A DNA stretch of 64,000 nt, from positions 68,448,001-68,512,000 of the forward strand of contig OX597824.1 in NCBI GenBank assembly GCA_951406725.2, in the 5' to 3' direction. This document shows, in pieces, positions 20,208-20,758 of the stretch. Both the position numbers and the translations under genes were made by a program. The notes under the pieces were generated by a model. It ran no database searches. It worked only from the letters and a program-made list of their open reading frames with translations, and had not been told where the DNA came from. Numbering within the stretch: position 1 is the first letter of the stretch; each line of letters opens with the position of its first letter. Source of the stretch: Octopus vulgaris. Its lineage: Eukaryota.

Positions 20208-20758
20208 TATATGCGTATGTATGTATGTATGTATGTATGTATGTATGTATGTATGTATGTATGTATGTACGTACGTACGTACGTACGCACAGACAGACAG
20301 ATAGACAGATAGGTAGATAGACAGACAAACAGACAGAAAACCAGTTAGATACAAACAGACGAACAGACAGTCAGGTAGATACTGACAGACAGACGGATAG
20401 ATAGGCAGACAGACAGACAGACAGACAGATAGACAGCTAGATAGATAGATAGATAACTTTCTTTTATTAGCCACACAGGGCTGAATACAGAGGGGACAAA
20501 TACAAATGCAGAGCTTTTCTTTTCGAGGGTGGAAAAAAATAAAAAATGTAAGATTGCGATCAAAAGGGATCGAGAGGAGGAAAAAAAGGAAAAAAAAAGA
20601 AAATCGTGTATCACAGAAATAATGGTGTAAACATTGATATAACAAGATTGGGTTCATCCGTGGGAAGAAAAGCCTACAGAAATGACCACGGGAACCCCAG
20701 TCAGGGAGGAAATAAACACATGAGGTCAAAAATGCTCTCTTTCTTTCTTTTTTACGAT

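Follow-up and report, generated by a model that had tools for sequence, protein, structure and literature searches.

A 43-nt sequence, at about 80% identity, is common to the T1 tail of SINE family A and to the 3′ terminus of a GATA-landing LINE family, and this shared tail is real and statistically strong. Both elements are found in the window, by which we mean the whole 64,000-nt stretch of Octopus vulgaris DNA analysed here, and their coordinates are collected in Table 1. Tail sharing between SINEs and LINEs is textbook, with the L1-group LINEs as the known exception. The sequence suggests a likely partnership of SINE-A with a Tx1-type lineage of that group. Our reading, which we hold at a probability of about 0.65, is that the T1 tail comes from a Tx1-type lineage lacking poly(A), the enzyme of which would copy the SINE by recognizing this tail, and that the lineage in question would be a sister family and not the GATA family itself.

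The sharing had been proposed by a sequence-only reading, which set the LINE end (minus strand, 20500-20458) beside the SINE end at 10864-10905, and it is confirmed by the alignment. The terminal 43 nt of LINE1 are identical to the SINE-A T1 majority tail (majority, 9 of 13 copies) at 35 of 43 positions, with a score of 49 that was reached by 0 of 20,000 dinucleotide shuffles (mean 14.7, maximum 31). The top-scoring site for the SINE tail in the whole 6.2-kb LINE is the LINE terminus. Within the 64-kb window, blastn joins the LINE end to the SINE end over 43 columns at 81% with E = 3 × 10−5. The homology is on the same strand, is 3′-terminal on both elements, and lies within the LINE 3′ UTR. 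Copy by copy, all 13 T1 tails are identical to LINE1 at 30-35 of 42 nt and to LINE2 at 27-32 of 42 nt. A tail census by blastn in the window has 16 matches, consisting of 13 SINE ends, the 2 LINE ends, and 1 site in the LINE1 leader. The first 16 nt had also been described as identical, which is so in 1 of the 13 copies; the others share exact runs of 6-14 nt only. Chance similarity of two AT-rich ends might be suspected from the shortness of the region, and from the quoted 16-nt run being the best of 13 copies, but it is refuted by the shuffles, by the strand and terminal position on both elements, and by the control tails, as T2, T3, and family B have no match to either LINE end (73-997 of 1,000 shuffles score as high). 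We give it next to no weight. Upstream of the clear match, the T1 module continues for another 25 nt or so, about 10 of which can be aligned, at 7 of 10 positions. The divergence of the SINE T1 tail from LINE1 is about 19%, and the SINE copies differ from their own majority by a mean of 6.2% (10 T1 copies).

Table 1. Coordinates of the LINE, SINE, and microsatellite features in the window.
Feature	Position	Strand	Remarks
LINE1, near full-length L1/Tx1-type non-LTR retrotransposon	20458..26620	-	flanked by GATA/TATC arrays, no poly(A)
LINE1 ORF1, 595 aa	24614..26401	-	one CCHC knuckle, low-complexity ends
LINE1 ORF2 (endonuclease, reverse transcriptase, zf-RVT)	20759..24194	-	three frames, breaks near 23650 and 23343 (tblastn)
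LINE1 3′ UTR	20458..20758	-	ORF2 stop codon 20761-20759
LINE1 terminal 43 nt, common with SINE-A T1 tail	20458..20500	-	predicted 4-bp stem, 6-nt loop
Leader hairpin, 12 bp, CTTGT loop	26449..26484	-	in LINE1 5′ leader, matches last 27 nt of SINE T1b tail
LINE2, 5′-truncated 3′ end (465 bp) of a diverged relative	26690..27154	-	tail present, between GATA arrays
GATA array at LINE1 3′ junction	20396..20455		further arrays 26620-26687, 27157-27214
Array of four SINE-A units	10675..11445	+	contains tail 10864-10905
SINE-A pair	12770..13068	+	T1a end (12877) enters position 48-49 of a T1b copy
SINE-A pair	14042..14456	+	T1a end (14270) enters position 48-49 of a T1a copy; 13-bp duplication around pair
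SINE-A pair	15600..16024	+	T1a end (15828) enters position 48-49 of a T1b copy; 7-bp duplication; in family-B SINE head
SINE-A monomer, T1 tail	6940..7154	-	11-bp duplication
SINE-A monomer, T1 tail	8700..8929	-	about 14-bp duplication
SINE-A monomer, T1 tail	45339..45567	-	13-bp duplication (by eye)
Two partial SINE-A copies, T1 tails	17409..17657		back to back in opposite orientation; ends 17411 minus, 17651 plus
SINE-A with T3 tail	12503..12706	+	tail 12660-12706
SINE-A with T3 tail, second	57743-57951		tail 57908-57951
T2 tails	11272-11320, 39700-39753, 59647-59670		last one partial

The tail is a trait of the LINE family, since many LINE 3′ UTR variants are joined to it and run into GATA repeats. 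LINE1 ends with AAAGAAA directly into the microsatellite without a poly(A); at the 5′ side, where it blends into the TATC phase, its limit can be placed only to within a few bases. LINE1 and LINE2 are arranged head to tail inside one GATA microsatellite region (20396-27214). Two LINE copies had been credited with the tail; both do have it, but they are diverged relatives and not twin copies, with agreement at 99 of 123 columns of the ORF end and 192 of 299 (64%) of the UTR. The tail agrees at 38 of 47 columns (81%), so it is better conserved than the UTR around it. Contigs of 4 public runs (3 studies, 3 organisms) were aligned to the LINE 3′ UTR, with read depths in this and the SINE mapping not equated with copy numbers. 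Among the contigs listed, at least 133 in run X2 and at least 160 in run X5 leave the 5′ side of the tail as LINE-type UTR variants, and at least 3 in X3 and at least 6 in X16 leave it as SINE body. Past the 3′ end of the tail, the contigs listed have a GATA consensus in X2 (131), X5 (157), and X3 (8), at an agreement of 0.56-0.86, and the fourth run has a less clear consensus (10 contigs). A local insertion of a SINE into a single LINE copy is ruled out by the tail in LINE2 and in the many contig UTR variants, which agrees with what had been expected from the window.

The clade of the LINE was examined by its ORF2. Pfam finds the endonuclease PF03372 at E = 4 × 10−10, the reverse transcriptase PF00078 at E = 8 × 10−32, and PF13966 at E = 9 × 10−8, and the element has the features of the L1 group, which are two ORFs and an ORF2 with APE, RT, and zinc knuckle, nearest to L1 among the solved retroelements. 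The scores there are 170-172 bits (E = 10−49) to human L1 ORF2p and 59-76 bits (E = 10−20) to R2, in a comparison set that showed no CR1, L2, or RTE protein. That the element belongs to the L1 group is well supported. Higher scores, 225-293 bits, are obtained with six fish proteins whose source annotation is TX1 or pol-like, and the proposal of an L1/Tx1-type donor lineage gains support from the tail match and from the fish TX1-named scores exceeding those to L1. The nearest named relative is from Argonauta hians at 65% identity. A 28-row RT tree without an L1 outgroup gives starred support to a clade of the element, Argonauta, and unnamed proteins; this clade joins the fish TX1-named clade without starred support, all names being source annotations. 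A target-sequence preference is common in the Tx1 clade, if not universal, and one is found here in the GATA junctions of the window and of the 131 and 157 contigs mentioned above. Membership of the Tx1 clade is likely. Metagenomic relatives consist of 5 distant loci at 24-37% identity, uninformative on tails, three of which are rows in the tree; a first metagenome scan for LINE relatives with 3′ UTRs found none, and longer proteins searched for the endonuclease domain gave no match.

Upstream of ORF2, a Pfam search of LINE1 ORF1 had no match. Its look-alikes in the Atlas are CCHC and ZCCHC3-type proteins at scores of 0.88-0.92, to be taken as a lead only. For residues 200-440 (25090-25800, minus strand) the look-alikes include clusters with ZCCHC3-type RNA-binding domains, at 0.88-0.90. 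The resemblance to ZCCHC3-type domains is a lead on the architecture of Tx1 ORF1. An open frame of 154 aa (24237-24701, minus strand) shares an A-rich run with the end of ORF1, which it overlaps there, and it may continue ORF1 in another frame. Rfam finds no ribozyme in the LINE1 leader, all matches being far below gathering scores. No RNA data set is on record as containing the LINE, a result that has no bearing on its expression.

SINE family A is about 230 bp long, non-coding, and interspersed, with 22 blastn pieces in the window besides the LINE end. Its target-site duplications measure 7-14 bp, which is a wider range than the 11-14 bp first given. The head has an A-box-like and a B-box-like stretch, as read by eye in the alignment against the A and B box consensus, and ARAGORN and Rfam recognize no tRNA in it. 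One head and body carries three tail types, T1, T2, and T3, parting at one point, of which only T1 matches the LINE. T1 itself has two variants, T1a and T1b. A Meta domain was considered as the identity of the body and was dropped against published alignments; compared by eye, the body is unlike the BivaMeta-SINE1, BivaMD-SINE1, and Lottia Nin rows, and we assign it to neither the MetaSINE nor the Nin/Deu superfamily. One of the two partial copies at 17409-17657 has an internal deletion. The window also holds a second abundant SINE, family B, with about 18 copies by self-blast (3661-4084, 19304-19778, 51553-51994, 61536-62200, and others), and a GC-rich tandem array at 47222-47566 with a 63-bp unit in 4.2 copies at 92% matches.

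A shared tail could also have moved the other way, or come from a third party. In that case the end of SINE-A, or that of a non-Tx1 LINE, would have been acquired by a Tx1 ancestor, and an RTE, CR1, or L2 enzyme would drive the SINE. RTE, CR1, and Dong-R4 are also recently active in Octopus vulgaris according to Table 1 of PMC13282606, and duplications of 7-14 bp with a 3′ overlap are compatible with RTE-type insertion as treated in the available text of PMC13295347. That such pieces can be acquired is suggested by the second SINE-tail-like hairpin, the one in the LINE1 leader. Its fold has z = −3.7, with 0 of 200 shuffles as stable, and its match to the end of the T1b tail has a score of 36 that 0 of 200 whole-LINE shuffles reached, which was a post hoc find. 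Matches to the T1a, T2, and T3 tails are not significant (11 to 86 of 200 shuffles). The hairpin precedes ORF1 by about 50 nt and has AAAGAAA behind it, and in the loop region it is closer to the T1b tail end than the LINE's own tail is. It may belong to the leader, or it may be the 3′ terminus of a different element that became fused upstream. Against this rival, the SINE body is absent upstream of the LINE tail, and LINEs that are only 64% alike in the UTR retain the tail at 81%, with the contig UTR variants behaving likewise. Also against it, we found in the window no further fragment with an RT and no further tail donor, and nesting at fixed sites is a habit that PMC4494074 describes for Tx1. 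On the evidence of the window and the contigs, we regard transfer into the LINE or from a non-Tx1 donor as unlikely, and continue with a Tx1-type source for the T1 tail.

Which Tx1-type family would do the copying is a question of landing sites. Both LINE ends (2/2) lie in GATA and none of the T1 ends (0/13) do, as had been noticed for the SINE copies in the sequence-only reading. GATA arrays make up 452 of the 64,000 bases of the window, so that all the 0/13 rules out is strong GATA targeting. The insertion signature of the SINE differs from that of the GATA LINE family, which lowers the claim of the GATA family and not that of the LINE lineage. Contigs of 4 runs from one organism were also aligned to the SINE T1 tail, with 52,859, 79,918, 32,398, and 1,122 placed. 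The 14 downstream loose-end rows listed are mixed and AT-rich (agreement 0.39-0.58) without a GATA consensus. The 10 upstream rows listed are SINE-body-like, with no non-SINE donor among them, in a mapping that is insensitive to other donors because LINE tails sit at its 80% threshold, and that has 199 loose-end rows beyond those listed. Head junctions are invisible to these rows, as a contig whose match includes the end of the stretch does not count as a loose end.

The GATA-targeting family might nonetheless mobilize the SINE itself, if its specificity were relaxed in trans. The window shows no donor besides this family, its match extends to the last bases, and it is abundant and near-identical in 20 public runs of three organisms, where sampled words of LINE1 are present at 0.75-0.83. 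Its tail, however, is 19% diverged and has another loop length, an upstream part of the SINE module is unmatched, and GATA junctions are missing both from the 13 T1 ends and from the 14 loose-end rows listed. Furthermore, PMC4494074 attributes target choice in the Tx1 clade mainly to the endonuclease. We consider relaxed specificity improbable. Given 0 of 13 ends in GATA, a SINE module longer by about 25 nt, and a loop of 5 against 6 nt, the GATA family is probably not the driver of SINE-A.

Of the 13 T1 ends, five join another SINE-A head, 3 at position 48-49 and 2 at position 15-19, and so does 1 of 2 full T2 ends at 15-19. In the array of four units, the T1 ends at 10905 and 11122 and the T2 end at about 11320 each enter the next head at position 15-19, in the A-box-like stretch. 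All three inserts at position 48 are T1a, and their hosts are T1b, T1a, and T1b; position 15-19 receives other T1 ends and T2. As the hosts belong to two subfamilies, more than one event at position 48-49 is likely, and a single dimer master for all three pairs was rejected on that ground; two masters could account for them. In two of the nested pairs, one duplication surrounds the whole pair, so nested pairs could be dimers copied as units. The remaining 8 of 13 T1 ends are at unrelated sites. Several T1 ends overlap the start of the target by 3-6 nt. The SINE-A ends at 16018 and 17411 are inside family-B sequence. The two fixed head spots point to a target preference of a sister Tx1 family's own. 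A non-specific sister family had been suspected as the true partner; the sister part of that is supported, and "non-specific" is probably too weak a description with 5 of 13 T1 ends at two fixed positions of the SINE-A head.

The next question is whether the tails have a feature that an enzyme could recognize. A CU(G)UGU loop on a 4-bp stem is seen repeatedly, in the three SINE tail types and in both LINE ends, with thin support. Single-sequence folds of the LINE, T1, and T2 tails give the 4-bp stem at a stability no better than shuffles (z from +0.5 to −1.0 for LINE and T1), and the T3 stem appears in a loop scan and is absent from the T3 fold. The loop is 5 nt in the SINE and 6 nt in the LINE. 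Within the T1 and LINE ends there is no two-sided (compensatory) change, with the stem of the LINE offset by one base. Across the tail types, 42 of 44 cells are paired and 3 of 4 pairs have a two-sided change, versus at most 54.5% in slid controls; the 11 rows of the set stand for only 3-4 independent tail types, and the T1 ends among them, 5 of 13, were picked for having the stem intact. In this register one pair is broken in each of the two LINE rows. Among the T2 and T3 tails, 3 of 5 have a stem around the same loop as T1. CTTGT occurs at 169 sites in the window, of which 12 have a stem of at least 4 bp, and these are 9 SINE-A tails, the LINE1 leader, and 2 others. There is thus a hint in the alignments that the loop letters stay constant while the stem letters swap across tail types.

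The weak folding and the lack of covariation inside T1 would suit a reading of the tail as a Tx1-derived relic, with recognition now loose, the hairpin incidental, and the nested pairs being dimers or local duplications copied as units. The single duplications around whole pairs and the 8 of 13 ends at unrelated sites would suit it too. It does not sit well with a stem that T1, T2, T3, and the leader all have at the same loop, with its letters altered, with SINE-A tails making up 9 of the 12 stemmed sites out of 169, or with hosts from two subfamilies at the same junction. On balance a relic is quite improbable, and recognition of the tail by a sister Tx1 family is the reading we carry forward.

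By that reading, SINE-A would be transcribed by Pol III from its A/B-box-like head. Its tails would have been captured by template switch at the point where T1, T2, and T3 part, a process of the kind proposed in PMC4824008. An ORF2p would bind the short stem with the CU(G)UGU loop. Binding of a stem-loop by ORF2p is described for zebrafish L2 elements in PMC4176376, in the available text of which the 29 strings "TX1" are mutant names and not the clade. Target-primed reverse transcription may be aided by the 3-6 nt overlap of the last bases of the tail with the target, and the real driver would be a sister Tx1 family preferring SINE-A heads.

To judge how unusual such a pair would be, we compare it with what has been described. 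In the portion available of a survey of 58 SINEs, 3 have L1-clade tails, in maize and Chlamydomonas; these 3, confined to plants and algae, compare with over 800 families of the L1 clade (PMC3472496). ZmSINE2 and ZmSINE3 with LINE1-1_ZM in maize, and SINEX-3_CR with L1-1_CR in Chlamydomonas, resemble the octopus pair in combining a tRNA-type SINE, putatively so in the octopus, with an L1-group LINE by a terminal sequence in common, which in the maize lineage is a conserved, hairpin-forming last 45 nt (PMC3472496, PMC3747384). The octopus case differs from these in its animal host and in a LINE that is Tx1-like, target-specific, and without poly(A), where the algal pair ends in poly(A). Table 1 of PMC3747384 has no row for a Tx1 or mollusc pair.

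The one Tx1-driven SINE we found described is the crocodilian SINEU, linked to Tx1-Mar by targets in common and not by a tail (PMC4494074). It resembles the octopus case in that a SINE is assigned to Tx1 machinery, with different Tx1 families proposed for different SINEs and sites. SINEU differs in having U1/U2 heads and poly(A) tails, and in the text available no LINE with the 3′ end of SINEU-1 was found (PMC4494074); the octopus pair has instead a putatively tRNA-like head and a shared tail for its link, with visible LINE and SINE targets that differ. As an APE-RT LINE in a microsatellite, LINE1 is like Kibi in (TC)n, Koshi in (TTC)n, and the crocodilian Tx1 families in (TTCC)n and (TTTC)n, but its target is (GATA)n, a term absent from the main text of PMC4494074, and its starred clade with Argonauta and unnamed proteins is its own.

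Bivalve SINE-LINE pairs also have one SINE body with exchangeable tails, sharing 35-61 bp at 72-95% (PMC11481361, PMC4824008), and the octopus tail match falls within the range accepted there (PMC11481361). The bivalve partners differ, being CR1, CR1-Zenon, L2, and Nimb in the pairs available from PMC11481361, where the term Tx1 is absent. The supplement of PMC5786205, as far as available, has no match to Tx1 or Octopus. In the literature we found no Tx1 tail shared with a SINE; Repbase, Dfam, the Zenodo library of PMC13282606, the 1994 octopus SINE paper, and the 2015 genome paper are outside this coverage and may record the pair.

The finding names a candidate engine for an abundant class of octopus SINEs. 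According to the text available of PMC13282606, all SINEs together are 11.6% of the Octopus vulgaris genome, SINEs and LINEs had a burst at a Jukes-Cantor distance of 0.065, to be set beside the mean 6.2% of the T1 copies here, and 13 L1-Tx1 families were recently active. If an animal Tx1 lineage has a shared tail and no poly(A), stringent recognition would also cover animal members of the L1 group, which bears on whether it is ancestral. The tails and targets provide a natural series for testing RNA choice by ORF2p. As a tentative wider picture, which we regard as doubtful on present sequences, there may be an octopod radiation of target-specific Tx1 families without poly(A) that read the CU(G)UGU hairpin. 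SINE-A would swap its tails among T1a, T1b, T2, and T3, and would inherit with each the landing site of its carrier, including two sites in its own head, while the last bases of the tail would help to pick the site. If this is true, SINE-A is a passenger that builds landing pads for its own carrier, and octopods would offer an animal L1-group system with stringent RNA recognition, by which it can be tested if the poly(A)-only recognition of mammalian L1 is derived.
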